A stretch of DNA of 20,000 nucleotides from an uncultured virus (IMG/VR IMGVR_UViG_3300023117_001979) (Duplodnaviria > Heunggongvirae > Uroviricota > Caudoviricetes). Made by a program: the position numbers and the translations under genes. Under the pieces are notes generated by a model. It did not search any database. It was not told the origin of the DNA and saw nothing but the letters and a program-made list of their open reading frames with translations. The stretch lies in IMG/VR virus record IMGVR_UViG_3300023117_001979. One strand, 5' to 3'. Shown here one piece after another: positions 1 to 19,772 of this stretch (its first letter is position 1; each line of letters opens with the position of its first letter).

Positions 1-1
1 C

Positions 2-169: not shown

Positions 170-502
170 TTGAGTAGCAAAAGAAAGCAAAGTAAATCAA
201 CTACATGCTCCTGGGGCGATATAGTGCTTACTACTAAACAACTAGAATTTGCCAAACGGCAAACACTGAAAGAGCTCAAATCTTTGAATCTTTTTGTTAA
301 GAACGGTGTAAACTTACACTCTACTGGCTCAGCAGAAGAAAAAAATGCTGATACGGAGTTAGTAAGGACAGCACTGCAAAGTATTGAAAACATGGATATA
401 ACTCAGTCTAGTGTAGCCATCTTAATTTCTGCTTTACACCGCTTAGGTGTGGAAGCAAAGCTAGATGCTATCTTTGACTTAGAAGATTTGACTCCTGTAT
501 AA
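170..502 (+). CDS. Hypothetical protein (110 aa)
   Basis: ORF with TTG start (uncertain) and GGTGA at 152-156. Its TAA stop is the TAA of the first ATAAGTG. Confidence 0.65.
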   Translation: MSSKRKQSKSTTCSWGDIVLTTKQLEFAKRQTLKELKSLNLFVKNGVNLHSTGSAEEKNADTELVRTALQSIENMDITQSSVAILISALHRLGVEAKLDAIFDLEDLTPV

Positions 503-661
503 GTGCGGAAAGATACACAACCACACAAAATTCGCAAAGATTATGCGGCTAGGCTTGAAGCCTGGCGAACAAAACAAACGCAGCTAGCAGACTACAATAA
601 AGAAATGTCTCGTGCTAAACAGCGTACTCTTACAGATTTTTTCCCTGAACCTGAAGAGTGA
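503..661 (+). CDS. 52-aa microprotein with C-terminal PIP box (QRTLTDFF)
   Basis: Too short for the ORF track. Starts at the GTG of ATAAGTG and fills the 502-665 gap. Translation MRKDTQPHKIRKDYAARLEAWRTKQTQLADYNKEMSRAKQRTLTDFFPEPEE; QxxLxxFF is encoded at 620-643. Confidence 0.8.
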   Translation: MRKDTQPHKIRKDYAARLEAWRTKQTQLADYNKEMSRAKQRTLTDFFPEPEE

Positions 662-664
662 TAA

Positions 665-1357
665 GTGGCCAAAATTAAAATGGACCCGATTACTGGTAAT
701 ATTACCCATATCGATGGAGTACAATTACTGGTTCCAATATCAATGATAGATTGGACAAAGGCGACTCAGACTTATACTTCTTCATGTATTGAATACATAG
801 AAGAAAGCTACAAAGCACAAGAAAAATGGAACAGTGCTATTGGTGATTCTGAGATACTTAGTCTAGTCAAAAAGCATGTTGGAAAAGAAATTCTTGAAAG
901 ATTACAAGAAGAAAAGGGCTTTAGCTTGGTTATCGTCAGACCTACTGAAAAGTGGGAAGAGCCAGGTTATGAAGAGCCTCAAGCAGAAGGATTGGTCAAT
1001 TTAAACGACCTTAGACGAGTTGAGATAATTTGTATCGCAACTGACCTTCTAAAAACTAAAGTACGCCGTCAAAAAACTAGCATAAACAATGCTACTAAAC
1101 GGCGTCAACTTGCTATTTCTGTTGAAGAAATACAAGCAGAATGCAGAAAACAGTTGAGTTTCCCAACGAAAACTGTCTCTAGAGTCAAGGGCGTTAAGGG
1201 TTCTGAAGAACCTCATGACACTGATAATATTGATGAATTTTATCTAGAGAGCATTCCCGATATTCTTATTCAGGAAGGATGGAAACGGTATACAACTGAA
1301 AACTCCTTCGTACCCGAAGTAAACAATCACCCTTTTTGGGGGTCTTTGGATGAGTAA
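665..1357 (+). CDS. Hypothetical protein (230 aa)
   Basis: ORF starts at the motif GTG; no recognisable domain. Confidence 0.8.
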   Translation: MAKIKMDPITGNITHIDGVQLLVPISMIDWTKATQTYTSSCIEYIEESYKAQEKWNSAIGDSEILSLVKKHVGKEILERLQEEKGFSLVIVRPTEKWEEPGYEEPQAEGLVNLNDLRRVEIICIATDLLKTKVRRQKTSINNATKRRQLAISVEEIQAECRKQLSFPTKTVSRVKGVKGSEEPHDTDNIDEFYLESIPDILIQEGWKRYTTENSFVPEVNNHPFWGSLDE

Positions 1358-1772
1358 GATTTGCACCATTAGAGGGTGCAGAAGAAAGGTTCCTTCATTC
1401 ATTAAAAATAATCCTAAGGGCGAGCCGCTTTGTGCAGTTCATCATGGGTTACAAGTTAGAATGGAAGAAGATAGAATCACTTGTACTATTATTGATTGTA
1501 CAAGCATGGCTTATTCAGGCGGTCTGTGCAAAAATCATAGCCACAGCCCGCGTGAACCCCGTATGGACTTAACAAAGTGGCATACAGAAACAAGACAGGA
1601 CAAACTAAAGCTGACTCTAGGTAATGTACTTAGAAACAAGCGTCCTTTGCACTTGCTACAAATGAACGACTTCAATTGTCTTTATTGTAATGGAGATGCT
1701 CATAGCTCTCTTGGCGCAAGTCCCCCTCATTGTTGCCCAGTTTGCTGGGCGAAGATTGAAAAAATTAATTGA
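1350..1772 (+). CDS. Cys/His-rich multi-zinc-finger protein
   Basis: Two C-x4-C...C-x2-H units (CTIRGC...LCAVH; CTIIDC...GLCKNH) plus CLYC...CPVC. 8-nt ATGAGTAA overlap with the upstream stop. Confidence 0.75.
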   Translation: MSKICTIRGCRRKVPSFIKNNPKGEPLCAVHHGLQVRMEEDRITCTIIDCTSMAYSGGLCKNHSHSPREPRMDLTKWHTETRQDKLKLTLGNVLRNKRPLHLLQMNDFNCLYCNGDAHSSLGASPPHCCPVCWAKIEKIN

Positions 1773-1779
1773 GGAATAA

Positions 1780-2004
1780 GTGTTGATGACAATAATTCAA
1801 CTCATTGTGTTTACCAGTATTGCTCTTGGCTTACAGCACCTGTTGTACAAATATCAGGTGCTAGGCACATACACTAGCTGGTATCACCGCATCAAGCACC
1901 GAGGTGCTGGATGGGAATATTGGAGGAACCTGGTTATCCTATGGATAGCATTGGTACTCTCTACTGAAATTACCTACATCATAGGGTTGAGGCTTTATGG
2001 TTAA
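1780..2004 (+). CDS. Small membrane protein, two predicted TM helices
   Basis: Hydrophobic stretches IIQLIVFTSIALGL and LVILWIALVLSTEITYIIGL; motif GTG start. Confidence 0.7.
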   Translation: MLMTIIQLIVFTSIALGLQHLLYKYQVLGTYTSWYHRIKHRGAGWEYWRNLVILWIALVLSTEITYIIGLRLYG

Positions 2005-2527
2005 GGAAATTGAAGGAATTGTAAGTCCACCCACCGTAGTGTGGGACAGGTATACTGACAACTCGTTACGAACCAATAGCTTGGGAAATATCCCTGACGG
2101 TGAGTATCGCGTAGTTGATGAGTTTATTTGTAATTTTGAAAAGACTTACACACCCGGAGGCGATAATGACTGGAAAGAAGGAGATGCTCCTTGCCAGTAC
2201 ATCTATTCCGATACGCGAGTTACTGTCAGGTCAGGAATGTTTGACCTAGGACAACTTTTACAAGCCGCTGAAGAGCTAAAGACAAAATCCCACTATTGGG
2301 GTGTTTATCTTGAAATCGCTAAGTTTGTAAGGAGGCCTCGTGGTTCTGCTCCTAGTGAGTGGAATAACTGTAAAGACCAAAACATGCCGGGAGCTACTCG
2401 GCGTGATGGAACAGTTATACCTCCGTCTGTCATTGTAAGATGCAAGCGCAATCGATACAACGAAATGACAGAAGAAGAAAAACAAATGTGGGCCGAAGGC
2501 CTCATTTACATCGCATGGGGGAGCTAA
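1997..2527 (+). CDS. Hypothetical protein (176 aa)
   Basis: ATG start with GAGG upstream; 8-nt overlap with the previous stop. Confidence 0.75.
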   Translation: MVKEIEGIVSPPTVVWDRYTDNSLRTNSLGNIPDGEYRVVDEFICNFEKTYTPGGDNDWKEGDAPCQYIYSDTRVTVRSGMFDLGQLLQAAEELKTKSHYWGVYLEIAKFVRRPRGSAPSEWNNCKDQNMPGATRRDGTVIPPSVIVRCKRNRYNEMTEEEKQMWAEGLIYIAWGS

Positions 2528-2531
2528 CCTC

Positions 2532-2840
2532 ATGTCAGAACCTCAAATTGTAAGAGGGTCTTGGCCATATGGAGTGGTTGAGATGGATGACGGAAGAATT
2601 TTCGTCAAAGTAATAAATTTCCCTGTAACCGATGATTCGGGATATGCAGGTGAAAGTATGTGGGTCATTTTGACTGAAGGAGATGAATTTAATGGGGTTG
2701 GTACACTAAACAACCAGCCTCGACACTCTTCTATCGAACTTGGCTCATACATTCGATTCGCGGGTGGTACAGAAACCACAGAGCCGCGTTTTGTTCAGGT
2801 GGTAGCTTACCCACCTACTCAAGGTGAGAACCATGAGTGA
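2532..2840 (+). CDS. Possible DUF2314/YegJ-like protein
   Basis: GESMWV...GVGTLNNQP...IELGSYIRF resembles the E-x-MWV...G-x-L-x-N-x-P pattern of that family (from memory). GGGGAG SD upstream. Confidence 0.5.
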   Translation: MSEPQIVRGSWPYGVVEMDDGRIFVKVINFPVTDDSGYAGESMWVILTEGDEFNGVGTLNNQPRHSSIELGSYIRFAGGTETTEPRFVQVVAYPPTQGENHE

Positions 2841-3249
2841 AAGAATCGACTTGACTCAATTTGAAGGGTTAGGAGACTGGGAGGTTGTACCTCAACCAGA
2901 TGGTGAATACGCTATCGTAACAGGAAGAGATAATTCCTCCTTGGAAGAAGCGAATACTATCGCCAAACTACCTACTTTAATTGCTGAGTTGAAGAGATGT
3001 TATGACTTGATTGACAAGTTTCACTTTATGTATGGAGACTCTTTTGAAGAGTCTTTTTGGATTGCGACATGCAAGCCGGATGGCGAAGGCCAGTGCAGTG
3101 TGACTGTCAACTCATATGAAATTCTCATGCAAATGGTAGCCGCCAATGTGGTGGAAATACCAGAATATAGTCATGACCACACAGAACTCATTCTTTTAGA
3201 ATGCGAGTGTGGTGTGACTCATGAAGAATGGCTTGAAAGTAAAAACTGA
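2833..3249 (+). CDS. Hypothetical protein, paralog of 19239-19757
   Basis: Start moved to ATG 2833 behind AGGTGA SD, with ATGAGTGA overlap. N-terminal RIDLTQFEG..GDWEV..IAKLPTLIAELKRCYDLID is shared with 19239. Confidence 0.75.
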   Translation: MSERIDLTQFEGLGDWEVVPQPDGEYAIVTGRDNSSLEEANTIAKLPTLIAELKRCYDLIDKFHFMYGDSFEESFWIATCKPDGEGQCSVTVNSYEILMQMVAANVVEIPEYSHDHTELILLECECGVTHEEWLESKN

Positions 3250-3258
3250 AGGCTATAA

Positions 3259-3975
3259 GTGTCACCATGGAATATTGTTGATAACGATTTGGAGATTCTA
3301 AGACATGAGGATTGCCTCGGTGCTCTTGGTTTCTTCGAGTTCCTCCTAAGTGAGGGACTAAATGAGAACGATGTAATACCAAGTAATCATCGTGAAAACT
3401 TCTATCAAGTTGGTAGGGGTGATAGAGTACCATTTTTGGTAGTGAGCAACAACCTAAGCAAAACTGTTGCCCCCGAAGTTATTCGAGGTTTTGATAACCT
3501 CTTTCAAGAAGGGGTAAATCTAACAGGAGCTATGCTTACTTCTGATGATACTCACAAAGAGCTCAAGAGAAAATTTGAGCAACGGGAGTTCCAGCCTGGT
3601 CAAGAAATGATTGAAAAGGGACTCCTAGTAGAGTGCATTTTTTGGTATAGGGCGCGTCAACTAAGGACTCGTCGACCAAACTTGAAGCACACTGAGATTT
3701 TCGCCACTGTAAATGGTGAAATGGAAATTCTCAAAGAAGATATGAAGAATTTCATTGATTTTACAATTCAAACATCAATGATGAGCTTCGTTAATTATCT
3801 CGAATCGCATGGCTATGAAGGAACTGATGCTAATGCGATTAAGGTCACTATTGTAACTCTTCATTCTCAAGCAGGCGTGATTGTTCACCCTGAAGAAGAT
3901 GCAGAAATGCTTCGTGAAAACGAAAGAAAGGCTGCCAAGAAGAAGAAGACTTACTTTGACCCCTCATTCATGTGA
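3259..3975 (+). CDS. Hypothetical protein (238 aa)
   Basis: ORF starts at the motif GTG. Confidence 0.8.
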   Translation: MSPWNIVDNDLEILRHEDCLGALGFFEFLLSEGLNENDVIPSNHRENFYQVGRGDRVPFLVVSNNLSKTVAPEVIRGFDNLFQEGVNLTGAMLTSDDTHKELKRKFEQREFQPGQEMIEKGLLVECIFWYRARQLRTRRPNLKHTEIFATVNGEMEILKEDMKNFIDFTIQTSMMSFVNYLESHGYEGTDANAIKVTIVTLHSQAGVIVHPEEDAEMLRENERKAAKKKKTYFDPSFM

Positions 3976-3982
3976 GGTATAA

Positions 3983-4774
3983 GTGGGACTAGAAATTAAC
4001 CTACAATTTACTGCAAAATCCGTGGCGGAGCTTAGAGAACAGCTGACAGCTGCTTTGAGTGAGCTCAACGGAAGCGCAGTGGTGGAAACACCAAACAAGG
4101 CTACGAAAACCGAGAGGCCTAGTGCTGAGACTCCTAAAAAGGAAAAGAAGCCTAAAAGGCCTAAGAAAACGGTAAGGCGACCTAAAGCGCCAAAGGCTAG
4201 CTTAGAATGTAAAAGCTGCAAAGCAACGAGCACCCCTCAATGGCGCCGTAAAACGGCTCCTGAAGGGCCTCTTTGTAATGCATGTCACATGAAGCTATAC
4301 AAAGCTGAAAGAGCGGCCAAAAATAGCCCAAAAGAGAGTAGTGCAGAACGGTCTAGGCGGATTCGCCAAGAAAAGATTGGGTCTGCAGCTGCCTCAAAAA
4401 AGAAAAACAAACCTAAGGTAGAGAAGCTAGAGTTTGAACCTGCTGAAAAAATCGAAGCGGATATGTCCACTGAAGCATTTTACTTGTGGGCCCAGTCATA
4501 CTTGCCAGGAATGGTGATGCGTGACAAAACCTTCCTTGTTGCTTCTAAGGTCATTGAGACCTGGTTTACTACCCTAAGGCCACAGTCTGAATATGACAAG
4601 TGGTGTCTTAAAAATTTACAAACATTTACTGATGAAACTCGTAAGATGTTTGAAGTTTACCAAAAGGTACACCCTACCATTTTGATGATTCAAGATGCCG
4701 GGGACAATGTTGTACTTATGGTGAATAACCCGTCGGCCCTGACTTTTTCAAAGTTAGAAGGCCTACTGGAGTGA
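3983..4774 (+). CDS. GATA-type zinc-finger protein with flanking Lys/Arg-rich segments
   Basis: CKSCKATSTPQWRRKTAPEGPLCNAC at 4208-4285 is C-x2-C-x18-C-x2-C with the TPxWRR and LCNAC GATA signatures. Motif GTG start. Confidence 0.85.
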   Translation: MGLEINLQFTAKSVAELREQLTAALSELNGSAVVETPNKATKTERPSAETPKKEKKPKRPKKTVRRPKAPKASLECKSCKATSTPQWRRKTAPEGPLCNACHMKLYKAERAAKNSPKESSAERSRRIRQEKIGSAAASKKKNKPKVEKLEFEPAEKIEADMSTEAFYLWAQSYLPGMVMRDKTFLVASKVIETWFTTLRPQSEYDKWCLKNLQTFTDETRKMFEVYQKVHPTILMIQDAGDNVVLMVNNPSALTFSKLEGLLE

Positions 4775-4778
4775 TTTT

Positions 4779-5126
4779 ATGACTGAAGAAGAGGAAATCG
4801 AAGTTTATTTCCCTAAAGGTGAACACTTAGGTGTTCACATAGAATCCCCTGGAGCAGCCCTTTTGATGGTTACTCCTCTAGAGGGTGAGCGTTTCAGTCA
4901 AAGATTCGTAGTGTTGCTCCATTTTGGCGAAAACACATACAAGCTTGTACTTTCATGGTCCCCTTCCCGCGCAGGGGAGGAACGCATTCCATGGGGGACT
5001 TTAGATGGGAAGGAAATCGACCCAACTAAGCACCCACTATTTGGAACGAAAAATGAACAAGCTGGTTTATATCACAAAACTCTTCCACCGGGCTGTTATG
5101 TAGTCCGAGAAGAAATCAAGGTATGA
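4779..5126 (+). CDS. Hypothetical protein (115 aa)
   Basis: ATG start behind GGAGTGA; C-terminal HKTLPPGCYVVREE. Confidence 0.75.
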   Translation: MTEEEEIEVYFPKGEHLGVHIESPGAALLMVTPLEGERFSQRFVVLLHFGENTYKLVLSWSPSRAGEERIPWGTLDGKEIDPTKHPLFGTKNEQAGLYHKTLPPGCYVVREEIKV

Positions 5127-5133
5127 CCAATAA

Positions 5134-5331
5134 GTGAGTAACGAAAGTACTTTACAAACTAGTCTGCTAGAGGCTTCAAACGAAAACAATCGTCAATTGA
5201 AGCGAATTGCAGATAGCTTGGAAGAACTCCTTTCAATGATAAAGGGCGTTCAACCAGCTGAACTTGCGAAAAAGGCAAAGGAGCACAAAAAAGCTCAATC
5301 AAATCTGAAAAGGAGGCGAAATAATGAGTGA
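5134..5331 (+). CDS. Small basic coiled-coil protein
   Basis: Motif GTG start; LKRIADSLEELL heptads and a basic tail. Confidence 0.7.
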   Translation: MSNESTLQTSLLEASNENNRQLKRIADSLEELLSMIKGVQPAELAKKAKEHKKAQSNLKRRRNNE

Positions 5332-6634
5332 CGAATTATTACAAATGGCCCAAAGTTTGGGTTGTTCACCTACATTCGTTGAATTTGAAATGCTCCCGGT
5401 TACCTATTCGCAAATTGTACTGGTGGCGGGTCTGATTATTACTGACTCTCACCAACAAACTGGACCTAATTATGATGCCAACCAGCGTACAAGGTTTGAC
5501 CTTTGTACTGAAGTAGGTGATAATGGTCTTGCGATTATCTTCAACAACCATAACGGTGGTACTACTGGAGAAATCGTTTTCGACGCGCCAAAGTTTAGGC
5601 GTTCAAGTCGACACATAATTAATGCTCAAATTGACATGTCGCCAGGAGACTTTAGGCCTATGGTTCGTAACCGAAGGGCCACTTTATCTATTGGTGACAT
5701 GGGCTTGATTATTAGCAGTACCGATGACAATGAAATGCTACAAAAATACGGTCAACGAGCGGTTCGACGCTATGGTTATCGTAATTACAACAATCGTAGT
5801 CACTTTACTAGTCTAGGATTTAATGTAAACTGCAACCAAGGAATTCAAATTCAATATTCTTGGAACAAAAATGAGCATGTTTATGGCTGGTCAAATAATA
5901 CAGGTCACGCACAAACTACGGTTATTCCGTTCTTTGGAACAGAAAAGCCGACTAGAATTGAGCCTGTATTTGAAGCCAAATTCCCTTATGACACATTTAA
6001 AAAAATGTTGAACAGTTCGGGAAGAGCCAAAGATAGTGGTGGAGCTCTTTATTGGAGCTACAACCCTAAAACAAAGAAAATGTACACTGTTGGCGCATAT
6101 GCTAACGGTGAAATTTCAAAAGAAGGTCGTACATACAATACTTCAGCTTGGGTACATAACAGTGTAACTGAGCTAATTGCAGGGACAATTCCCTACCGGC
6201 CTTTTGGTGAAGCAATTGTAAACCGATACAAAACAGCTACCCATGCTGGATTTGGCATGGATGCACATGGTCGGCAGTACATTTGTATTTACTACCCATG
6301 GGGTCATATTCGATATAACCATATTACTTTTTCACATGGTGTAATCGAAGATGAGTCTGTGAGTGATATTTCGGGGCCAAAGGTCTCGTTAGAAAAGAAT
6401 GCACCTGCGTTCTTTGAAAACTACGATTTATCATTTGAGTACTCGCCTTATACCGCATCTGAGGAATTATTTCTCAACAAGTGGTACGCAGTATTCAACG
6501 AATACCAAGAAGAGCAACTTTCGCGGCCTAAACTGCCGAAAAAAGGTGAAATTCTTCAATGGTATATTTGTTTTTGTCAGAATGGAGATGTTACTGATGA
6601 GGACGCACTGCTAGCTCAGAAAATTTTGAGCTGA
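5324..6634 (+). CDS. Hypothetical protein (436 aa)
   Basis: Long ORF with AGGAGG SD and ATGAGTGA overlap; no confident domain. Confidence 0.85.
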   Translation: MSDELLQMAQSLGCSPTFVEFEMLPVTYSQIVLVAGLIITDSHQQTGPNYDANQRTRFDLCTEVGDNGLAIIFNNHNGGTTGEIVFDAPKFRRSSRHIINAQIDMSPGDFRPMVRNRRATLSIGDMGLIISSTDDNEMLQKYGQRAVRRYGYRNYNNRSHFTSLGFNVNCNQGIQIQYSWNKNEHVYGWSNNTGHAQTTVIPFFGTEKPTRIEPVFEAKFPYDTFKKMLNSSGRAKDSGGALYWSYNPKTKKMYTVGAYANGEISKEGRTYNTSAWVHNSVTELIAGTIPYRPFGEAIVNRYKTATHAGFGMDAHGRQYICIYYPWGHIRYNHITFSHGVIEDESVSDISGPKVSLEKNAPAFFENYDLSFEYSPYTASEELFLNKWYAVFNEYQEEQLSRPKLPKKGEILQWYICFCQNGDVTDEDALLAQKILS

Positions 6635-6641
6635 GCTATAA

Positions 6642-8003: not shown

Positions 8004-8011
8004 GCCAATAA

Positions 8012-12787: not shown

Positions 12788-12793
12788 GAATAA

Positions 12794-13480: not shown

Positions 13481-13487
13481 TGTATAA

Positions 13488-14060
13488 GTGAGTTTAGACC
13501 GACTAGACCAAGTTGCTGATAACGGAATCATGAATGAGACCATTCAGCGTTACAGGGAAGAATCAGCGCAGCTCTATGCAGCTATTGACACCCTTAAACA
13601 AATTGGTAAGAGAGAAAATTACATAAAAGCACCTAAGTTTGCTGAAATTATACTTAGGCCTTGGCTAACTGACTGTGGTTATATTAACCTAGAAGATGTT
13701 GTCAAGCGCCTTACAGAGCTTGGTGTTGATGCTAATACTATCTTTGAACACTACGGTCATCAACTGTCGGACGCAAGGCCGGCACAATATGATGAAACTA
13801 CACTTGCAAGAGTGATTCGCAACAGCTATCGAAATTATAGTGGCATGCGAAAACTGAATAAAACTGATTACATAAAGGTAAACCCTGATGGTGACGGAGA
13901 CCTAAGTATCAGTAATGTACTTTCAGAGCTTGCAAGAATAAGGGCTGAGTATGACGCTTGGCATGAAATTAAGACTCTGCTTCGAGTAGGAAAAGTCGAA
14001 ATTTCAGTAATTGAAAATCCTTCACCACCCATGCGTAAAAAACTGGGTTTGGAGGACTAG
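13488..14060 (+). CDS. Hypothetical protein (190 aa)
   Basis: Motif GTG start. Confidence 0.8.
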   Translation: MSLDRLDQVADNGIMNETIQRYREESAQLYAAIDTLKQIGKRENYIKAPKFAEIILRPWLTDCGYINLEDVVKRLTELGVDANTIFEHYGHQLSDARPAQYDETTLARVIRNSYRNYSGMRKLNKTDYIKVNPDGDGDLSISNVLSELARIRAEYDAWHEIKTLLRVGKVEISVIENPSPPMRKKLGLED

Positions 14061-14068
14061 TAAAATAA

Positions 14069-14473
14069 GTGAGCACAATTATTGTGAACATAGAATTAGC
14101 CGAAGGATGGACAGTTTTTACTGACCCCAAAACCGGCTCAACCCACCTAGAATACATTCTAGAAGAGGGTGATAAAGAATGGATTACTGCCAAATTTTCG
14201 ACTCCTGGTCGAGATGACTATGGCACTGAACACCATAACAGCGCTAGTATCATTATCGAAAATGAAGAGCGCGAAGAATCGGTCAAGACTAGAATTTCAG
14301 TCGCTGACCCAAGAGGTGGGTTCTTGATGGAGTCTCGTGTAAACGAAACCGGGCACTATCTGAGCGTACCTACTGCTAAAGACTCTCTTCCCCATGTTGA
14401 TGACATGGAAGAAAGAGGAAGAGGTTTTTACAAGCTTACTTACGCCCCTGCAAAGGGGGAAAGAAATGAGTAA
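14069..14473 (+). CDS. Hypothetical protein (134 aa)
   Basis: Motif GTG start; contains ISVADPRGGF. Confidence 0.75.
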   Translation: MSTIIVNIELAEGWTVFTDPKTGSTHLEYILEEGDKEWITAKFSTPGRDDYGTEHHNSASIIIENEEREESVKTRISVADPRGGFLMESRVNETGHYLSVPTAKDSLPHVDDMEERGRGFYKLTYAPAKGERNE

Positions 14474-14828
14474 GAAAAGAATAACTGCTGACTTTACAAA
14501 CGCACTAACTGGTTCGTTTGAAACTGAAGTTACTTTGTATTCTCAAACCAAGCATGAATGGGGGTTTACTACAATGGCAAAAATCGATACGGGCGCTGAC
14601 CGCTCATCAATTGATTTGCGTCTTGCTAACGCACTAAGACTCCATCAAATCGGTGAAATTACCGTAAGAAATGCTATGGGTAAACAAAAAAGAAGGACTG
14701 TGCTGTTGTCACTGAAAGTTTTCGGCTCAAAGAAAATAGTTGAAGTGACGGTGGCTAACCGTCGAAAGATGACCACTCCCTTCATCATTGGCATGGATTT
14801 AGTCATGGAGGATGAAGATAGTGAGTGA
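14466..14828 (+). CDS. Retropepsin-like aspartic peptidase (RimK/LysX-associated 'ATP-dependent Zn protease' type)
   Basis: AKIDTGADRSSID catalytic motif, VRNAMG..KRRTV, and ANRRKMTTPFIIGMD. Start probably ATG 14466 behind GGGGGA, with ATGAGTAA overlap. Confidence 0.8.
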   Translation: MSKKRITADFTNALTGSFETEVTLYSQTKHEWGFTTMAKIDTGADRSSIDLRLANALRLHQIGEITVRNAMGKQKRRTVLLSLKVFGSKKIVEVTVANRRKMTTPFIIGMDLVMEDEDSE

Positions 14829-15006
14829 ATTCCCTTACGAAGAATCCTATGGACCTGCTTACAACTACGAAGTAGGCTACCTTGAAGGATTGAAGGAGGC
14901 GCATCGTCTCGCATTGAATCAACAGAACACAGTTCTAGCTGATTTTCTCAAGAAGAGAATCGAAGAGCAAAAGAAGTCTGTAAAGGAGGAGATGCCTGAT
15001 GAGTGA
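14821..15006 (+). CDS. Small hypothetical protein
   Basis: Start GTG 14821 or ATG 14812 behind GGAGGA; YEVGYLEGLKEA; overlaps the upstream stop. Confidence 0.6.
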   Translation: MSEFPYEESYGPAYNYEVGYLEGLKEAHRLALNQQNTVLADFLKKRIEEQKKSVKEEMPDE

Positions 15007-15166
15007 CTACTTAATTGAAGGAAGTAGTTCGTCGCAAATAAGCCCTCACAGCTCTTCTTGGAAACTGTATGGTAGGACTGATAACCTACAAGAAGCTCGT
15101 GAAATCGCCGCAAAGGCATTCATGAAAACCAACTACCGCATTATTAGGATTCGAGAGAAGTCCTAA
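14999..15166 (+). CDS. 55-aa hypothetical protein, below the ORF-track cutoff
   Basis: AGGAGGAG SD, ATGAGTGA overlap, fills the gap before the motif at 15174. Translation MSDYLIEGSSSSQISPHSSSWKLYGRTDNLQEAREIAAKAFMKTNYRIIRIREKS. Confidence 0.65.
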   Translation: MSDYLIEGSSSSQISPHSSSWKLYGRTDNLQEAREIAAKAFMKTNYRIIRIREKS

Positions 15167-15177
15167 AGCGAGTATAA

Positions 15178-15777
15178 GTGTCTAGAAACCCTGGCGCAAA
15201 GATTCTTCGTGAAAACGAAGCTGTAACCAAGGCCGCTATGGCCTATGGTGCGGAAAAGGATATTGAGACCACCCAAACCGTCATGGTTCAAGGTTGGGCT
15301 CAAGAAATCCCTGAAGTTAACGGAGTGTTCAACGCTCTTGTTGCTATGCAGAAAGAAGAGCATGGTCGTGCGCAAGCACTACTGGCTGAGTTGGAAGAAA
15401 CGACTGATGGTCGCCGTCGAGGTGAAATCCGTCGTCACTACAACACTATCTCGCGCAACATGGAGCGAAACAACGAAGTTATCAATTCCTTGATGGACAA
15501 GAAAATTGGTAGCGCCGTTAAGAAAAAGAAGGCTGAACAGCCCAAAGAAGTGGCTAAGGAGGAAACTCCTAAGCCTGCTAGGAAAAAGAAGCGTGTCACA
15601 CCAGCTGAGGTGAAGGCTGCTGCTTCTAAGCGAACTAGTGGTGGAGGTCGTTCACGACGAGCCACCCTAGAATCGTTGAGTTTTAAGGAACTTCAACAAT
15701 GGGCCAAGAAGCGCGGTTTTAGCGGTGCTGGTTCACGAGAAGCGATTATCAATCGTATTCTCAACAACGGCGAATAA
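15178..15777 (+). CDS. Coiled-coil/basic protein with C-terminal SAP/HeH nucleic-acid-binding domain
   Basis: LESLSFKELQQWAKKRGFSGAGSREAIINRIL at 15667-15762 fits the SAP/HeH pattern L..L...EL......RGL...G.K..LI.RL. Lys/Arg-rich linker. Motif GTG start. Confidence 0.75.
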   Translation: MSRNPGAKILRENEAVTKAAMAYGAEKDIETTQTVMVQGWAQEIPEVNGVFNALVAMQKEEHGRAQALLAELEETTDGRRRGEIRRHYNTISRNMERNNEVINSLMDKKIGSAVKKKKAEQPKEVAKEETPKPARKKKRVTPAEVKAAASKRTSGGGRSRRATLESLSFKELQQWAKKRGFSGAGSREAIINRILNNGE

Positions 15778-15836
15778 TCGCCTATAAGTGAAACCATGGA
15801 AATAGAAACATGGAAACAAACTTTGGAGGAAGGAGA

Positions 15837-16142
15837 GTGACAAAGCGCATTTGTCCCACTTGCAGTACTCCGGCTTGCCGTGTATGCGGCGGGCGTAAAT
15901 GTAAATGTGACCCCAAAAGTATGGAGATAGCAATTTATTGCAATTGTCCTCCGATTGATTTTTTGGAGTTCATGAGAAAACAGCTCGATTTGCCCCAGTC
16001 TGAGATAGACCGGATTCACGAAGCGAGTAAGAAAAACCTAAAAAAGTGGCTAATGAAGAATGGGCACTTAGACAAAATTTTTGACACTCTTAGAGATGAA
16101 GGGCACTTTAACAAAAAAACAGAACCTGATGAAGAAGAGTGA
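15837..16142 (+). CDS. Cys-rich Zn-finger protein
   Basis: CPTC..PACRVC...CKC...YCNC. Start either ATG 15810 or GTG 15837 (behind GGAGGAAGGAG). Confidence 0.7.
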   Translation: MTKRICPTCSTPACRVCGGRKCKCDPKSMEIAIYCNCPPIDFLEFMRKQLDLPQSEIDRIHEASKKNLKKWLMKNGHLDKIFDTLRDEGHFNKKTEPDEEE

Positions 16143-16149
16143 CTAATAA

Positions 16150-16317
16150 GTGACGGTAACAAAAGGCCGATACATTCACCTTTGGGGACAATACAAAGGT
16201 GGCGAATGGGAATGGATAGACACTGCTGATGAAAGCAACAGTAAATCCTTCTTATATGCAAACTATCGTGATGCTTTTGGCGAGGGCTGGAAATTTTGCT
16301 GGAGGAAAAGTCGATGA
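16150..16317 (+). CDS. 55-aa aromatic-rich hypothetical protein, below the ORF-track cutoff
   Basis: Motif GTG start; translation MTVTKGRYIHLWGQYKGGEWEWIDTADESNSKSFLYANYRDAFGEGWKFCWRKSR; ATGA overlap with the next gene. Confidence 0.75.
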   Translation: MTVTKGRYIHLWGQYKGGEWEWIDTADESNSKSFLYANYRDAFGEGWKFCWRKSR

Positions 16318-16520
16318 AAAAATTCGAAGCGCCTCCTGGATATTTTGAAAGCCTGCCAACTGAAAGACGAATAGCATACTTACAACTGACTGCTAGGCAG
16401 ATTGGGGAAAAGCTCAAAGTAGAGCGTGAGCGCCTCAATTATATTAAAGAAGAAATCAAGAATATTGACAAAAAGCTTGATTCTGCTAATAAAAAGCTAG
16501 CTGGTGAACATGCCGACTAA
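16314..16520 (+). CDS. Small coiled-coil protein
   Basis: ATG 16314 behind GGAGG (16301-16305); heptad-rich C-terminal half. Confidence 0.7.
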   Translation: MKKFEAPPGYFESLPTERRIAYLQLTARQIGEKLKVERERLNYIKEEIKNIDKKLDSANKKLAGEHAD

Positions 16521-16785
16521 GGAATTGACTCGGTTTGAGCAAAGAACAGTTAACTTGCTTTTGAAGCAAGAAGCAGTTAAACGCGGCGAAGCGTTTACTG
16601 CTGGTAAAGCTATAATTTGGATGGAAAATACGCCCAGTAGGGAAAGAGCAACCCGCTGGCCTGCTTCCATTCCAAACAAATATCGCTTAACATACATTCT
16701 GAAGAAATGTGATTGTTTTAAGCGCACTTTCGCTAATAATGGTGTTAGTGAATGGGTTTACTTAGGTGAGACAAATGCCGAATAA
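16510..16785 (+). CDS. Putative winged-helix-like DNA-binding protein
   Basis: ATG behind GGTGA; FTAGKAIIWMENTP...PNKYRLTYILKK...beta wing ending SEWVY. Similar to the next gene. Confidence 0.6.
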   Translation: MPTKELTRFEQRTVNLLLKQEAVKRGEAFTAGKAIIWMENTPSRERATRWPASIPNKYRLTYILKKCDCFKRTFANNGVSEWVYLGETNAE

Positions 16786-17041
16786 ACCTGAAATAGAAAT
16801 ATGGATTGATATTCTTGAAGATAGCCAAATAGAGCGTCCATTTACAGCGCGGAGAGCTTACGATGTAATCGTAAATACTCCAGCTAAGAATGGGCGGAGA
16901 AGAAGAATGGTACCTAAGGGCACTTATCAGCTGTCTAGAAAACTGGCTCTATCGAGCCGAATTAAAGTAGTCGGAACGACTAGGAATCAATCAATTCTAT
17001 CTAACGGAGGGGGCAAAATTGCCCAATATGACTTCGTTTAA
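16775..17041 (+). CDS. Putative winged-helix-like DNA-binding protein, tandem paralog of 16510-16785
   Basis: ATG behind AGGTGA; FTARRAYDVIVNTP...PKGTYQLSRKLAL...AQYDF. Confidence 0.6.
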   Translation: MPNKPEIEIWIDILEDSQIERPFTARRAYDVIVNTPAKNGRRRRMVPKGTYQLSRKLALSSRIKVVGTTRNQSILSNGGGKIAQYDFV

Positions 17042-17047
17042 TAATAA

Positions 17048-17659
17048 GTGGACATTAAGGTTTACAAAATTTATATCGACGGTGCCTGTCCTGGAAATGG
17101 GACAGATGAAGCTGTCGGTGGAATGGGCTTCGCGCAAGAAAATGTGCGACCAGTGTCTGTTCCTTATACAGACCATATGCTACAACGCTATGGTATACCA
17201 ACGAATCAAAAAACTGAGCTTTTAGCAGCACTGATAGCCGTTGCTACTCTGTGCCAAGCTCTCAAGGAAGATGAGGAGTTTGCGATTCAAGCTAAAGCTA
17301 AACTAATTATCATTGAGGTTTACAGTGATTCGAAATATGTAGTCGATGGAATTAATATTTGGCTACACAACTGGAAGGCTAATGGTTGGTACAATAGTAA
17401 AAAACAACCAATAGCAAATTTACAAATGTGGAAAGACATTGACGCAATTTTGTCATATGGAGACCACCGTGGTCTCTTTTCTTTTTTCCATGTCGCTGGT
17501 CACTCCGGAAACAAACTAAATGACCAAGCTGATGAAGCAGCTGTTTATGCTACTTCGAATAACAGGGGTGACGAAAACCATTTGATGCTGAGTATGACCT
17601 CAGATGACTGGTCGTCGTTCTTGGAGATGCTGGCTTCTTGCTATGCTATCCAATTTTAA
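17048..17659 (+). CDS. rnhA: Ribonuclease HI
   Basis: IYIDGACPGNG, TNQKTELLA, VYSDSKYVVDGI, WLHNWKANGW...PIANLQMW, HVAGHSG..LNDQAD: the full D-E-D-(H)-D catalytic set. Motif GTG start. Confidence 0.93.
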   Translation: MDIKVYKIYIDGACPGNGTDEAVGGMGFAQENVRPVSVPYTDHMLQRYGIPTNQKTELLAALIAVATLCQALKEDEEFAIQAKAKLIIIEVYSDSKYVVDGINIWLHNWKANGWYNSKKQPIANLQMWKDIDAILSYGDHRGLFSFFHVAGHSGNKLNDQADEAAVYATSNNRGDENHLMLSMTSDDWSSFLEMLASCYAIQF

Positions 17660-17667
17660 CCCAATAA

Positions 17668-18060
17668 GTGAACCGTGAAAAATACGGATGCGTTACGAAT
17701 GAAAACTTTGTTACCAGAATAAAGAGCTCTAGAAACGATACTGTCTATGAAGTTAGATATGGCAAGTTTCCTGAATTAGACTCTAATGGTGACATTAAAG
17801 AAATTTGGAGATGGAACTGCGAATGTCCTTCTTGGACAATGCGCAGAAACCCATGTAAACATTTGAGCCAAGCTAAGCAAGAATATTGCGGCTGGCAAGA
17901 AAATTTAGTCTATGAGCCACCATTAGAAATGGAATATCTAGACGAAAAAAGCGGAGAGGCATTGTGTCCTCTTTGTGACCGGTTAGCGTACCCGCTATCG
18001 GTTTTGAAGAACAAGTATGACCATAATTCAAGTGTCTTAGGTGATGAAAATGCCGACTGA
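17668..18060 (+). CDS. SWIM zinc-finger protein
   Basis: YEVRY...WNCECPSW...PCKHL (CxC-xn-CxH), followed by CGW...CPLC. Motif GTG start. Confidence 0.8.
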   Translation: MNREKYGCVTNENFVTRIKSSRNDTVYEVRYGKFPELDSNGDIKEIWRWNCECPSWTMRRNPCKHLSQAKQEYCGWQENLVYEPPLEMEYLDEKSGEALCPLCDRLAYPLSVLKNKYDHNSSVLGDENAD

Positions 18061-18472
18061 TAGATTGGGTGATACAGGTGAGCCACTAACGAAGGCTCGA
18101 AGAAAATACTTAACGAAAATGCGGAAGAAATGGAATCGTAGAATTTTAATTGCTAGAATTAGCAAAGAATTGACTTTGGCACATGTCAGGAATGGATATG
18201 ATGAATTTTGGCTAACCTGGGAAAATATTCTCGACTATATTCGAGAAAGACCTGGTAGCAAAAGACATGACATGAGTCTTGACGAATTAACAAACCGTGC
18301 CCAGTATATGCTGGGACAGGATTTCATCGTTCAAGAAGAACACGACCGTCAGATTACTCGTGGTGGAATATCACGACGCTGGCGAGGGATTATGTTTCGC
18401 ATTGTGGATATGGATGCTTTAGATGAGTTTATTGACATGTGTCAAAATAAACGCGATAATGTAGGGCTCTAA
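18050..18472 (+). CDS. Basic hypothetical protein, possibly wHTH-like
   Basis: ATG 18050 behind AGGTGA; 11-nt overlap with the upstream stop. Confidence 0.7.
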   Translation: MPTDRLGDTGEPLTKARRKYLTKMRKKWNRRILIARISKELTLAHVRNGYDEFWLTWENILDYIRERPGSKRHDMSLDELTNRAQYMLGQDFIVQEEHDRQITRGGISRRWRGIMFRIVDMDALDEFIDMCQNKRDNVGL

Positions 18473-18479
18473 AGTATAA

Positions 18480-18701
18480 GTGACCGGTAAAAATCACAAC
18501 GAAAATTCGAATGACTGGCTAACTCCTGATGAGTTAGCTTCCATAATTTGGGTAAGCTTACCTGAGGATAAGCTTGCAGTCAACCGAGAGTTCCTAAAAA
18601 TTGTATTTAGGAAATTAAACATTGGCGATGTATGGATGTGGCCTGAGACCCAACGGGTTTTTAGGCGAGTATCAGAACATCACTTCATGGAGGTGAAGTA
18701 A
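18480..18701 (+). CDS. Small hypothetical protein (73 aa)
   Basis: Motif GTG start; TAATG overlap with the next gene. Confidence 0.7.
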   Translation: MTGKNHNENSNDWLTPDELASIIWVSLPEDKLAVNREFLKIVFRKLNIGDVWMWPETQRVFRRVSEHHFMEVK

Positions 18702-19231
18702 TGGAACTAGGAAAGGAGTTTGACAAATTTGTCCAAGACCTGCAAGAGAGAGCTATCAAAGAATTTGAAGAAAATGGCTCTGTTGGGCATAGCACTGTTA
18801 TGCTAACAATGAATGCTGGAAAGCTTGCTCGTGGGGCAGTAATTATGCCTGAGGAAGTAATCAACAATCGTGACTTGTACTATGCGCTAATCAAGCAACT
18901 TGTACAACAAACTCGTGCAATAGCGGTATGCTTTACTGCTGAATCTTGGGTAGGAGGGAACAAAGACATTAGCGCGTCAGAAGACCCTAATCGAAGGGAA
19001 GCAGTAATAATAAATGCTACACGCTATAATCCCTCTGGCGCCGTAATCGATAGTAGAGTAATTGCTCTAATGATAAATCGAGATGTTGAGCCACCAGTTT
19101 TGCTAAATGAAGAGGAAACTTTGAGAGTTATGGCAGAACGAGCAGGTGAAGACGATATTGAAGGCTTCATTTTCAACGAAAACCGCCTTGCAAATGACAC
19201 CGGTTCAGGTCCTGATTACTTTAGGGCTTGA
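18701..19231 (+). CDS. Hypothetical protein (176 aa)
   Basis: GGAGGTGA SD; contains AVCFTAESW...DPNRREAV. Confidence 0.8.
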   Translation: MELGKEFDKFVQDLQERAIKEFEENGSVGHSTVMLTMNAGKLARGAVIMPEEVINNRDLYYALIKQLVQQTRAIAVCFTAESWVGGNKDISASEDPNRREAVIINATRYNPSGAVIDSRVIALMINRDVEPPVLLNEEETLRVMAERAGEDDIEGFIFNENRLANDTGSGPDYFRA

Positions 19232-19238
19232 CTAATAA

Positions 19239-19757
19239 GTGGAAGAAGAAATACCACAAGATTTGGACGAGAAAAGAATTGACTTGTCCCAATTTGATGC
19301 AATTACTCCCGGAAACTGGGAGGTAATAGAAACCCCTAATGGAGGAATTGACATTGGGGTTAGGATAGGAGATAATGCACATCGGCATATCATCACCTTT
19401 ACTGAATCTCTTGGCAACCAAGCCAAGAAAATCGACAGGGATGTTGCTGACATGAACGCTATTGCAGCGGTTCCTAGTTTAATTGCACAATTGAAAATTT
19501 GCTATGAAGCAATTGACCAAATTAAGGATGCATTGCTAGAGCAAACACAAACGAATATCTTTTTAGAGAAGGTCAGGGAGGCCAAAAGTGGCCTTATTAA
19601 AGAAGACCTTAGTGCCTTCAAAGAAGATTTGTGGCGCGAAGCAATTTGTGATGAATCTGAGAACCTAATTCACAATAGAGGTGAAGAAGGGTTCTTTATT
19701 TCTGCAAAATTGGTAAACAAAATGTACAACTACTTCTCGTCGATGACTAGGGGTTGA
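19239..19757 (+). CDS. Hypothetical protein with Ead/Ea22-like N-terminal pattern, paralog of 2833-3249
   Basis: RIDLSQFDAITPGNWEV...ADMNAIAAVPSLIAQLKICYEAID; motif GTG start. Confidence 0.7.
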   Translation: MEEEIPQDLDEKRIDLSQFDAITPGNWEVIETPNGGIDIGVRIGDNAHRHIITFTESLGNQAKKIDRDVADMNAIAAVPSLIAQLKICYEAIDQIKDALLEQTQTNIFLEKVREAKSGLIKEDLSAFKEDLWREAICDESENLIHNRGEEGFFISAKLVNKMYNYFSSMTRG

Positions 19758-19772
19758 TTGATATAAGTGAGA

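Follow-up and report, generated by a model that had tools for sequence, protein, structure and literature searches.

Gene Array and Its ATAAGTG Junctions

The window, the whole stretch of 20,000 nt analyzed here, carries a co-directional gene array in which genes that come first in a module begin at the heptamer ATAAGTG and later ones at an ATG behind an SD-like GGAGG or GGTGA. Internal genes of modules often overlap by 4 or 8 nt. The GTG of the motif opens an ORF of 52–589 codons in 20 of the 22 copies, as a sequence-only reading of this DNA had claimed, the exceptions being the copies at 15784 and 19763; a TAA stands in frame directly before every motif GTG. The array begins 2 nt past a hairpin followed by T10, which leaves no space for another promoter. 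The features are given below, and the starts, ends and bridging are those of the RNA contigs listed for four metatranscriptome runs.

1..19802, + strand: co-directional array of ∼39 genes in modules of 1–4 (ORFs, Pfam/PHROGs)
499..505, + strand: motif; GTG at 503 opens 52 codons; its TAA is the stop of the upstream gene
661..667, + strand: motif; GTG at 665 begins a frame of 230 codons; contig starts at 657, 681, 678 and 683 in 4/4 runs mark a strong RNA boundary
1776..1782, + strand: motif; GTG opens 74 codons; contig starts at 1790 (2 runs), ends at 1773 and 1748; bridged by an X12 contig
3255..3261, + strand: motif; GTG opens 238 codons; contig ends at 3232, 3247 and 3250, start at 3270; bridged by an X14 contig
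3979..3985, + strand: motif; GATA-type zinc-finger protein of 263 codons from the GTG; hairpin CCTCA..TGAGG around the upstream stop, covarying in relatives; adapter-joined fragment end at 4001
5130..5136, + strand: motif; GTG frame of 65 codons; RNA boundary weak, bridged in 3/4 runs
6638..6644, + strand: motif; GTG opens 134 codons; 7-bp hairpin upstream; strong RNA boundary, contig ends at 6611, 6617, 6618 and 6619, starts at 6644, 6647 and 6650, 0 bridging
8008..8014, + strand: motif; GTG opens 159 codons; one contig end at 8005; bridged in 3 runs
8496..8502, + strand: motif; conserved ORFan of 589 codons from the GTG; contigs begin at 8508, 8512 and 8519 (the last adapter-joined) and end at 8471 and 8474
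10279..10285, + strand: motif; GTG frame of 458 codons; contigs end at 10274 (2 runs) and 10281 and begin at 10291 (3 runs), no listed contig bridging this strong RNA boundary
11665..11671, + strand: motif; GTG opens a 372-codon AEP primase; contig ends at 11657 and 11660, start at 11681
12790..12796, + strand: motif; GTG opens 228 codons, HNH-like; next ATG at 13025
13484..13490, + strand: motif; GTG opens 190 codons; upstream hairpin CTCCTC..GAGGAG
14065..14071, + strand: motif; GTG opens 134 codons; contig starts at 14083 and 14085
15174..15180, + strand: motif; GTG opens 199 codons, SAP-like C terminus; bridged in 3 runs
15784..15790, + strand: motif; GTG frame of 5 codons, then stop; the gene starts at ATG 15810; kept in relatives, ATAAGTA in L006
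16146..16152, + strand: motif; GTG opens 55 codons; contig starts at 16145 and 16170, end at 16119
16921..16927, − strand: lone antisense copy, within a + strand gene
17044..17050, + strand: motif; GTG opens a 203-codon RNase HI
17664..17670, + strand: motif; GTG opens 130 codons, SWIM finger; next ATG at 17839
18476..18482, + strand: motif; GTG opens 73 codons
19235..19241, + strand: motif; GTG opens 172 codons; strong upstream hairpin, −15.2 kcal/mol
19763..19769, + strand: terminal motif copy without a gene behind it, 15 codons running into a hairpin and T9; a ∼95-nt strain indel ends exactly at its 5′ edge; loose RNA contig end at 19762
19773..19802, + strand: end of the array, hairpin GAGGAACC-GAAA-GGTTCCTC and T9 run, identical in sequence in relatives L004 and G001:C21

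That GTG is the true start, as had been proposed, is supported by protein comparison in two cases: the Pfam domain of RNase H begins at residue 6 counted from the motif GTG, and 9 of 12 homologues of the 589-aa protein retain its N terminus (MEEFxIFL). Several motif genes have no alternative start codon for 50–230 nt after the GTG.

Frequency and Context of the Motif

A count over the window returned 22 exact copies on the + strand, at the positions previously reported, and 1 on the − strand. The chance expectation is ∼1.6 copies per strand, and 200 dinucleotide shuffles gave a mean of 3.17 and a maximum of 10 copies for both strands together, with 0/200 reaching 23. The antisense copy is probably due to chance. 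All 22 + strand copies sit at gene junctions, with a gap of −4 to +9 nt (most commonly 3–4) between the end of the upstream stop codon and the motif, and the preceding base is A or T in 21 of them (661 has G), again as first described. One-mismatch variants are not enriched (35 observed versus ∼64 expected). When L002, L004 and L006 are added to the window, 81/81 copies lie at junctions, and their logo consists of 7 invariant positions with no −10/−35 and no TATA around −26. Sigma-70-like sites are not in excess (29 versus 37.6 in shuffles).

The antisense core ACTTAT is depleted in coding sequences (14 observed versus 28 expected, z −3.8), the lowest value among 60 words of the same composition, and sense-strand ATAAGT within genes is unremarkable (6 versus 11.7 expected, rank 18/60). 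The 36 nt upstream of the motif fold more stably than background (−7.4 versus −5.2 kcal/mol, p = 1.5e-9), and these hairpins covary at orthologous junctions in relatives. No T-runs or obvious terminators were found at motif junctions. At some of them, an SD-like GAGG overlaps the upstream stop. ATAAGTG looks like a transcription signal private to this element.

Conservation of the Motif in Relatives

In relatives with proteins just 35%–40% identical, the motif is as invariant, as dense and as strand-specific as in the window. Sense/antisense counts at 35%–38% protein identity were 21/0, 17/0, 21/0, 6/0, 4/0 and 2/0. Gene order and motif status are conserved, and relatives differ by whole motif-bounded modules, such as two extra mini-modules in L006 (13251–13783).

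The motif is independent of the start codon. Copies that open no ORF are still conserved (19763 and 15784 in the window; L002:389; C21 461, 3306, 3433, 4603 and 9690; L015:1938). The motif is also kept ahead of 5′ UTRs with SD-ATG (C21 461, C15 9587), and it persists where only a short dead frame or a terminator follows. The gene at 16146 reads ATAAGT-ATG in L002 and L006 versus ATAAGTG-ACG in the window, L004 and C21. Copies also follow the last gene of co-directional groups, ahead of terminators or convergent genes, an arrangement seen at three kinds of place and conserved.

RNA Boundaries at the Motif

The RNA evidence consists of assembled contigs, not reads, from four metatranscriptome runs of the same year and habitat, and the figures for contig ends rest on the 32 contigs listed of 77. 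Transcript ends, which the sequence-only reading had suggested mapping, do gather at the motif: 46 of the 64 ends of the contigs listed fall within 30 nt of it, and 0/64 lie that close to any of the 16 internal SD-ATG junctions. Starts lie at −5 to +25 from a motif in 23/32 listed contigs (∼1.1 under random placement) and ends at −30 to +3 in 20/32 (∼1.2 under random placement), so that RNA 3′ ends too coincide with the motif. Among the contigs listed, internal junctions were bridged in 51/51 cases and motif junctions in 20/31; all 31 are flanked by contigs on either side, and RNA is discontinuous at 11 of them. Together with the conservation and the ORF independence, these RNA ends support the earlier view that the word is a functional nucleic-acid signal.

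Identity of the Element and Its Polymerase Genes

Two contigs of the G001 bin, C21 and C15, belong to a close relative, whose primase shares 81% identity with that of the window, and contain 31 and 10 sense copies; the motif is at background in the rest of the 1.2-Mb bin. C15 encodes a 1672-aa Rpb1-type protein, an archaeal-type RNA polymerase A′/A″ fusion whose top PDB matches are archaeal Rpo1N (4e-70), with an RpoH-like gene adjoining. PolB, MCM, resolvase and thermosome genes are present in the relative as well, and it encodes serine recombinases. RNA polymerase subunits and a recombinase, both proposed as search targets, were found in this relative. The window's own genome, of which 21.5 kb were examined, presumably carries polymerase genes as well. 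Other genes of the relative belong to a TATA-type class of archaea, with AATGTT(T/C)ATA 24–26 nt ahead of an ATG that has no leader; the motif genes therefore form a separate class.

The element is a ∼135-kb virus-like replicon of marine archaea, and its earlier assignment to archaeal viruses holds up. Magrovirus group D comprises marine scaffolds with PolB, thermosome, resolvase and RNA polymerase A, all four closest to archaeal homologues, and no morphogenetic block was found in it (Philosof et al., 2017, PMC5434244). All four genes are present in G001 C12/C15/C21, and by gene content rather than sequence comparison, the relative likely matches this group. The passages of that report examined here describe no promoter, motif or leaderless starts, and the words "promoter" and "leaderless" are absent from its text (PMC5434244).

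Discussion

The explanation that we prefer, with a probability of roughly 0.45, is that the element marks the boundaries of its transcription units with a signal of its own, ATAAGT(G), a TATA-independent initiator with a stop-start function that is read by a virus-modified polymerase and gives rise to leaderless GUG mRNAs. The polymerase would need no TATA box to initiate at this AT-rich word, and the contig starts may mark primary 5′ ends. The RNA would begin at the G of GTG or 1–2 nt before it and be translated as a leaderless mRNA; GUG would be the sole start codon possible at such a 5′ end because G and T (positions 5–6) belong to the signal. Later cistrons of a module would be translated via SD and AUG. 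The motif may also end the upstream RNA, and a stop-start role would explain the copy behind the last gene of an array. An initiator for leaderless GUG mRNAs and an RNA boundary or cleavage site were both among the four models originally proposed without a choice between them, and both are favored by RNA contigs that start and stop at the motif, the former also by the relative's polymerase subunits.

Several observations disfavor the initiator reading. A pure promoter is useless after the last gene, before terminators or convergent genes. The gene that comes first after the inter-array terminator has ATTAGTG rather than the exact motif in L002, L006 and C21. No second-largest polymerase subunit was found in the G001 bin outside the host-like operon.

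A possible but less probable alternative is that a sequence-specific endoribonuclease of the virus or its host cuts long array transcripts at or in AUAAGUG (e.g., AUAA|GUG). Every cut would leave a module with its 3′ end and the following module with a leaderless 5′ end. One cleavage event would explain both RNA ends more simply than an initiator. Indeed, ends and starts in the contigs listed meet at one motif at 10279 (10274/10281 versus 10291) and face each other at 6638 (6611–6619 versus 6644–6650), and terminal copies follow last genes and precede terminators. The upstream stop is nearly always 2–7 nt ahead of the motif, so that an RNA cut there retains its stop, and stable, covarying upstream hairpins are expected of 3′-end protectors. 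Strict invariance of all positions fits nucleases with 5–7-nt specificity, such as the MazF family. However, the search for an endoribonuclease, also suggested earlier, gave no candidate in ∼100 kb of element sequence, where Pfam identified only RNase H, HNH, PD-(D/E)XK and GmrSD. Each array would need an additional promoter, yet only 2 nt separate the start of the array from the preceding terminator. The antisense core is depleted at least as much as the sense core, which would not be expected of an RNA-level signal; RNA depth along the array rises as well as falls, and listed contigs bridge many motif junctions.

The remaining readings are far less probable. Ribosomes re-initiating at a GUG 7–8 nt downstream, with ATAA as required context, would suit the tight 2–7-nt gap between stop and motif, the GAGG over some stops and the in-frame TAA. 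This is improbable: internal genes already couple by ordinary SD-ATG overlaps, and the motif heads an array without an upstream gene. As a sole function, re-initiation is largely refuted by the conserved ORF-less copies and by RNA that, in the contigs listed, is broken at 11/31 motif versus 0/51 internal junctions. Even less credible is a recombination core of 7 bp at the borders of mobile gene cassettes. The strain indel at 19763, the whole-module gains and losses and the serine recombinases are in its favor; overall it is not supported. Gene order and motif status are stable across relatives, inverted repeats and an extended core are absent, and RNA boundaries and GTG starts are left unexplained. 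Indels are tolerated at junctions alone, so a breakpoint there is expected anyway. A TATA-like box with a start site ∼25 nt downstream, already rejected by the sequence-only reading, is the least probable of all, its AT-rich core and the adapter-joined fragment ends at +22 and +23 (4001, 8519) notwithstanding. Contig starts at +6 to +17 in 13/32 listed records contradict it, and those as early as +6 exclude a TATA box placed 25 nt ahead of the start site. Conserved protein sequence and Pfam domains begin right at the GTG, several genes lack another start for a long distance, and the element's real TATA class looks different.

Comparison with Known Systems

No earlier description of such a signal was found in the literature, in agreement with what had first been stated, and the closest parallels are partial. 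The late promoters of baculoviruses, (A/G/T)TAAG, and poxviruses, TAAATG, are of the initiator type, in viruses that bring their own polymerase. ATAAG forms the first five letters of the present motif, and TAAATG, like ATAAGTG, includes the start codon. These viruses have eukaryotic hosts, ATG starts, genes on both strands and mRNAs that are capped and polyadenylated or poly(A)-headed, and, unlike what is proposed for the motif, their promoters are not known to play a role in the upstream RNA end.

In Sulfolobus and haloarchaeal transcriptomes, the first cistron is leaderless and internal cistrons are SD-led. The modules follow this rule, with leaderless first genes and GGAGG-type SDs within, and the relative also has TATA-type promoters before leaderless ATGs. 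Host-type leaderless genes rely on a TATA/BRE at about −27 and have an AUG start, whereas genes of the motif class lack any upstream element and invariably begin with GUG.

Analogous to phages in which intercistronic RNA is processed (T7 early RNA by RNase III, T4 RNA at GGAG by RegB), a polycistronic array would be split here into discrete mRNAs at conserved intergenic sites with hairpins left at 3′ ends. The phage sites are structures or 4-nt words rather than an invariant heptamer, and they are not known to include the start codon or to create leaderless mRNAs. The yeast mitochondrial nonanucleotide promoter, ATATAAGTA(+1), is complete in <10 bp, is read by a single-subunit T7-like polymerase and contains ATAAGT followed by a purine start. 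Initiation at its final purine would leave the GUG out of the RNA here, and this likeness is probably coincidence.

The late promoter of phiKZ, 5′-TATG-3′ with G as +1, is recognized by the non-virion multisubunit RNA polymerase that the phage encodes (PMC4666361). Both systems would use a very short AT-rich word over the start site, without −10/−35 or TATA, and a virus-encoded relative of cellular multisubunit polymerases as reader. The phiKZ word has 4 nt and needs further undefined downstream sequence, versus 7 nt here, and in the passages of that source examined here, neither the start codon nor RNA 3′ ends are linked to TATG (PMC4666361). phiKZ infects bacteria, and the subunits of its polymerase are split and highly diverged (PMC4666361), whereas the A subunit found in the relative is clearly archaeal-type.

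Distribution of the Motif

The heptamer ATAAGTG occurs 22 times on the plus strand and once on the minus strand of the 20-kb window. Dinucleotide shuffles gave a mean of 3.17 copies over both strands, and none of 200 reached 23. The recount and the shuffles bear out the 22 plus-strand positions and the single minus-strand copy reported by the sequence-only reading, and its placement of the motif at gene junctions holds for all 22 copies. An artefact of chance or of a repeat was rejected, as the shuffles fall short of the count and an assembly built on 31-mers is not broken by a repeat of only 7 nt. The upstream stop ends 2–9 nt 5′ of the motif, with overlap at 499 and 661. As had been claimed, the GTG opens the next ORF (52–589 codons) in 20 of the 22 copies. 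The exceptions are the copy at 15784, where the GTG frame has 5 codons and the gene starts at the ATG at 15810, and the copy at 19763, which is followed by a hairpin and T9 and by no gene.

Variants with one mismatch were seen 35 times against ∼64 expected, and this lack of enrichment indicates that the signal is exact. Across 81 sites from the window and its relatives, every copy lies at a junction, with a modal stop-to-motif gap of 3–4 nt. The logo of these sites has seven invariant positions and essentially nothing beyond them: neither −10/−35 elements nor a TATA near −26 were found, and it is flat from −45 to −10, where a host-type upstream element was sought. Sigma-70 sites showed no excess, and a bacterial promoter was rejected on this ground. 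On the antisense strand of coding sequence the hexamer core is the rarest of 60 words of the same composition (14 versus 28 expected, z −3.8, rank 1/60). Within genes, sense-strand ATAAGT was counted 6 times versus 11.7 expected (rank 18/60). The only clear intragenic sense copy of the motif seen lies in a palindrome, ATAAGTGCATTGCACTTAT, that bears it on both strands (17002–17020 of C21, a contig of the relative in bin G001; locus L009).

GTG Starts and Module Layout

From the encoded proteins, the GTG starts at the motif are judged to be genuine. The Pfam domain of RNase H begins at residue 6 of the GTG-initiated frame, which supports the earlier argument that the GTG of this gene is its true start. 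The 589-aa protein encoded from the motif at 8496 has the N terminus MEE(F/I)xIFL right after the initiator in 9 of 12 homologues; the family entries that lack it are P0002 and P0003, both called from an internal ATG, and P0011. Several motif genes have no alternative start codon over 50–230 nt. For such genomes, the annotation rule would be to place the start at the GTG directly at the motif. Non-motif genes start with ATG behind a Shine-Dalgarno (SD) sequence of GGAGG/GGTGA type, often with 4- or 8-nt overlaps, and the status of a gene as motif-first or internal is mostly kept between relatives. AlphaFold modelled the 589-aa protein poorly (mean pLDDT 47.5), and a PDB profile search with this protein returned nothing meaningful.

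Conservation in Relatives and Copies without an ORF

The 589-aa protein has relatives at seven metagenome loci, one of them 100% identical (on a 135,676-bp contig) and six 35%–38% identical. The latter six carry 21, 2, 17, 6, 21, and 4 copies of ATAAGTG on the gene strand and 0 on the other, so that the non-coding strand, named in the sequence-only reading as a test of the signal, is free of it there. The heptamer is unchanged in relatives while the flanks have diverged. Several copies open no gene directly (L and C numbers denote related loci and contigs of the relative):

window 15784; L002 16651: motif before a 5-codon dead frame
L002 389: motif as GTG-TAA
window 19763, L004 17347, C21 29911; L001 41, L002 389, C21 9690: motif before terminators, at the ends of two arrays
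C21 461; C15 9587: motif before a 5′ UTR with SD and ATG
L015 1938: motif after the last gene of a co-directional group

These copies argue that the motif is more than a start codon, being kept where its GTG cannot start a protein. In one gene, the window, L004, and C21 have ATAAGTG-ACG-GTA where L002 and L006 have ATAAGT-ATG-GTA; a non-start copy in L006 reads ATAAGTA, and a decayed copy in C21 reads ATAAGTT, with a new ATG behind it. These natural variants reduce the nucleic-acid signal to ATAAGT followed by a purine. GTG is the constant start codon because the G and T fixed at positions 5 and 6 allow no other directly on the signal. The first gene past the inter-array terminator has ATTAGTG in three lineages, and the array head begins 2 nt after that terminator. 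The inter-array region has the same layout (hairpin, motif, 4-bp GCCC hairpin, and a hairpin with T8–10) at:

L001 20–100
L002 370–450
L006 255–335
C21 9660–9760

Its DNA is far more conserved than the flanking genes, and it may represent a ∼55-nt small RNA or an attenuator. A strain variant has ∼95 extra nt exactly 5′ of the terminal motif (window 19762/19763; L001 21264–21358), within which are an SD-like AGGA and an ATG frame of 18 codons; this variant is also present in an RNA contig of metatranscriptome run X12. C21 further contains an ORF-poor 2-kb stretch (3120–5100; L009) with a twice-repeated segment of ∼45 nt and five motif copies, one pair of which is spaced by 8 nt. This stretch may encode non-coding RNAs starting at the motif. 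An Rfam search of it gave no match, and neither Rfam gathering scans nor ARAGORN found RNA genes in the window or nine loci.

RNA Ends at the Motif

The stretch is present in 11 DNA and 13 metatranscriptome runs labelled salt marsh metagenome. RNA contigs from four metatranscriptome runs of one year and habitat were mapped on the window; the figures rest on 32 of 77 contig records listed, and the ends are those of assembled contigs, not of reads. Among the 32 listed contigs, 23 start at −5 to +25 from a motif (∼1.1 by random placement) and 20 end at −30 to +3 (∼1.2 by random placement). In all, 46 of their 64 ends lie ≤30 nt from a motif, and none (0/64) within 30 nt of the 16 SD-ATG junctions internal to modules. 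Listed contigs bridged internal junctions in 51 of 51 cases and motif junctions in 20 of 31, the RNA being broken at 11 of 31. The boundaries at 661, 6638, 10279, and 16146 were bridged by no listed contig, and listed contigs start or end there in 4, 4, 4, and 3 of the 4 runs, respectively. Break points vary by a few nucleotides from run to run, which is what a gradual loss of coverage towards RNA ends would give. At contig resolution, ends in the listed records reach −3/+2 and starts reach +6 of the motif; one end/start pair overlaps by 15 nt (16145–16159), and, counted from the motif start, adapter-joined fragments end at +22 in one case and at +23 in another. Strain microdiversity was judged unlikely to cause the breaks, given the few-nucleotide differences between runs and the 135-kb DNA assemblies that pass through. 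Upstream hairpin stability had no visible relation to bridging of the junctions. The motif very probably marks a transcript boundary.

Within the RNase H gene, positions 17459–17487 (+) of the window hold a terminator-like hairpin, GGAGACCAC-CGT-GGTCTCT, with a T-rich run behind it. At 17474, also in this gene, one RNA contig from run X15 shows a loose end of 110 nt.

Element Identity and Polymerase Genes of a Relative

The window primase resembles tailed-virus clusters in the ESM Atlas. IMG/VR scans with the primase, the 589-aa family, the convergent primase fragment, and a 30-nt pattern returned no relative; a 30-nt array-end pattern matched one species-genome contig, in bin G001. In this 1.2-Mb bin the motif is at background (138 copies versus 197 of the reversed word), except on two contigs whose ends overlap, C21 with 31 sense copies and C15 with 10. 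The primase of this relative is 81% identical to that of the window. Outside the motif arrays, C15 encodes a 1672-aa Rpb1-type protein, an A′/A″ fusion that has all five Pfam domains and an A″-like C terminus and matches archaeal Rpo1N best (4e-70):

L012 11367–17089 (+): cluster of RpoH-like (87 aa), RNase H (148 aa), and RpoA′/A″ fusion (1672 aa) genes

In this cluster the first two genes immediately precede that of the fusion; the RNase H gene occupies the place of rpoB in archaeal operons, and no gene for the second-largest subunit (rpoB) was found in the bin besides that of the host-like operon. Of the polymerase, nuclease, and recombinase genes for which the sequence-only reading suggested a search, the relative has those of the A′/A″ fusion, the RpoH-like protein, and a serine recombinase; no element-borne B subunit was found, nor a cognate nuclease family among the proteins scanned. 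It also encodes PolB, MCM, a second AEP primase, a Rad52-like protein, and GmrSD. The polymerase protein falls in a discrete family of at least 22 clusters, several on contigs of 117–138 kb, and its next relatives are only ∼25% identical.

PolB, RpoA, and a Resolvase-domain protein are encoded on C15, and a thermosome gene on a further contig, C12, which has the complete lack of GATC and ACGT common to the element. Both words are absent from the 20-kb window and every related locus (L001–L007, L015), and GATC from the 45 kb of C21 and the 36 kb of C15. For every 20 kb, the host-like contigs of bin G001 contain 45–47 GATC and 20–29 ACGT. The element thus seems to avoid two restriction sites altogether, and their absence, combined with ATAAGTG, provides a sequence tag for finding such elements in metagenomes. 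By gene content, the relative matches magrovirus group D as described in PMC5434244, with PolB, thermosome, resolvase, and RNA polymerase A of archaeal affinity; Philosof et al. left group D undetermined as virus, provirus, plasmid, or cell. For the window, membership would follow only from the 81% primase identity and the synteny with this relative. No later paper on magrovirus group D was found. The convergent gene past the array is a second AEP primase (PF01896, 8.8e-11 in C21), whose DNA is far more conserved between relatives than the array genes:

window 19806–20000 (−)
L004 17389–18006 (−)
C21 29958–31259 (−)

A Second Promoter Class

Non-motif genes of the relative are either SD-led or have AATGTT(T/C)ATA 24–26 nt before a leaderless ATG. 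Genes of the latter kind, which include the second primase, are found in loci L010, L012, and L013:

C21 35286 (−), 31285 (−): AATGTT(T/C)ATA before ATG
C15 24384 (+), 21399 (−), 28559 (+): AATGTT(T/C)ATA before ATG

Archaeal TATA promoters of leaderless AUG genes have this spacing. In coding sequence, TTTAAA and TTATAA rank with the most strongly depleted hexamers (z ∼−5.8 versus synonymous-codon shuffles; window, L002, L004, L006, and C21), consistent with avoidance of spurious archaeal TATA boxes. Thus, from this leaderless class and the avoidance of TATA-like words, the host system appears archaeal and able to translate leaderless mRNAs. The TATA class of the relative is absent from the sense strand of the window, no archaeal host-type TATA/BRE was found ∼26–27 nt upstream of motif-gene starts, and the motif genes appear to be a separate, TATA-less class.

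Two GATA-type zinc-finger proteins are encoded (PF00320):

window 3983–4774 (+): 8.9e-8
L013 7352–7747 (+): 2.6e-8

They are candidate readers of the motif because the classical GATA site, WGATAR, overlaps its core, ATAAG.

Possible Mechanisms

We favor stop-start transcription at a TATA-independent initiator read by a virus-modified polymerase, with a probability of roughly 0.45. This reading is favored by the polymerase genes of the relative, the separate promoter class of the motif genes, the array head 2 nt after a terminator, the antisense depletion of the core, and precedents such as the phiKZ TATG promoter. A marine-archaeal virus-like element would swap its own A and H subunits into the host RNA polymerase, and the re-programmed enzyme would start without TBP or a TATA box at the 6–7-nt initiator ATAAGT(G). 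The initiator would also halt the preceding transcript and encode the start codon, the whole array being expressed as a chain of leaderless GUG mRNAs. That subunit replacement, TBP/TATA-free start, arrest of the prior RNA, and the leaderless-GUG chain all hold jointly is a tentative proposal. In a bolder variant, the RNase H encoded between rpoH and rpoA would cut the nascent RNA at the motif during transcription.

Cleavage of RNA at the motif, the main rival and somewhat less likely, would account for 5′ and 3′ RNA ends that meet at the motif without T-runs, for terminal copies with no gene behind, and for stop codons kept 2–7 nt upstream. It is also in keeping with the enriched upstream structure (−7.4 versus −5.2 kcal/mol, p = 1.5e-9), a covarying hairpin at the 3979 junction, and the ATTAGTG past the inter-array terminator in three lineages. 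However, no MazF/PemK, RegB, HEPN, or Cas6-like family was found among the scanned proteins (38 + 30 + 48), and avoidance of the word is not confined to the transcribed strand (sense rank 18/60, antisense rank 1/60). A pure signal for translational re-initiation is very improbable, as some copies have no ORF behind them, others stand at the head of an array, and the RNA itself is broken at 11 of 31 motif junctions among listed contigs. As for a TATA box, contig starts reach back to +6, which leaves too little room for one serving a start 25 nt downstream; the earlier statement that the motif is no ordinary TATA box is borne out, and this reading was rejected as scarcely credible. A recombination core is likewise very improbable.

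Comparison with Known Systems

We know of no archaeal virus reported to have a multisubunit RNA polymerase or a promoter code of its own, and no description of the motif was found, either under the word itself as DNA or RNA or in the literature on leaderless GTG-start phages, magroviruses, group D, or Poseidoniales viruses. If the joint reading with the A and H subunits is true, archaeal viruses would have here their first virus-specific transcription system. Should the heptamer be a private initiator, it would offer direct access to the element on which Philosof et al. did not decide between virus, plasmid, and cell. It would offer a natural model system, with promoter, terminator, and start codon packed in seven bases, and bears on the recognition of leaderless GUG mRNAs by archaeal ribosomes.

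Viruses with their own polymerase have initiator promoters such as ATAAG in baculovirus and TAAATG in poxvirus. The TATG promoter of phiKZ has its G at +1 (PMC4666361). The motif described here would work like these three initiators. Unlike them, it is an invariant heptamer in an archaeal-type system, forces a GUG start, and also marks the 3′ ends of RNAs.
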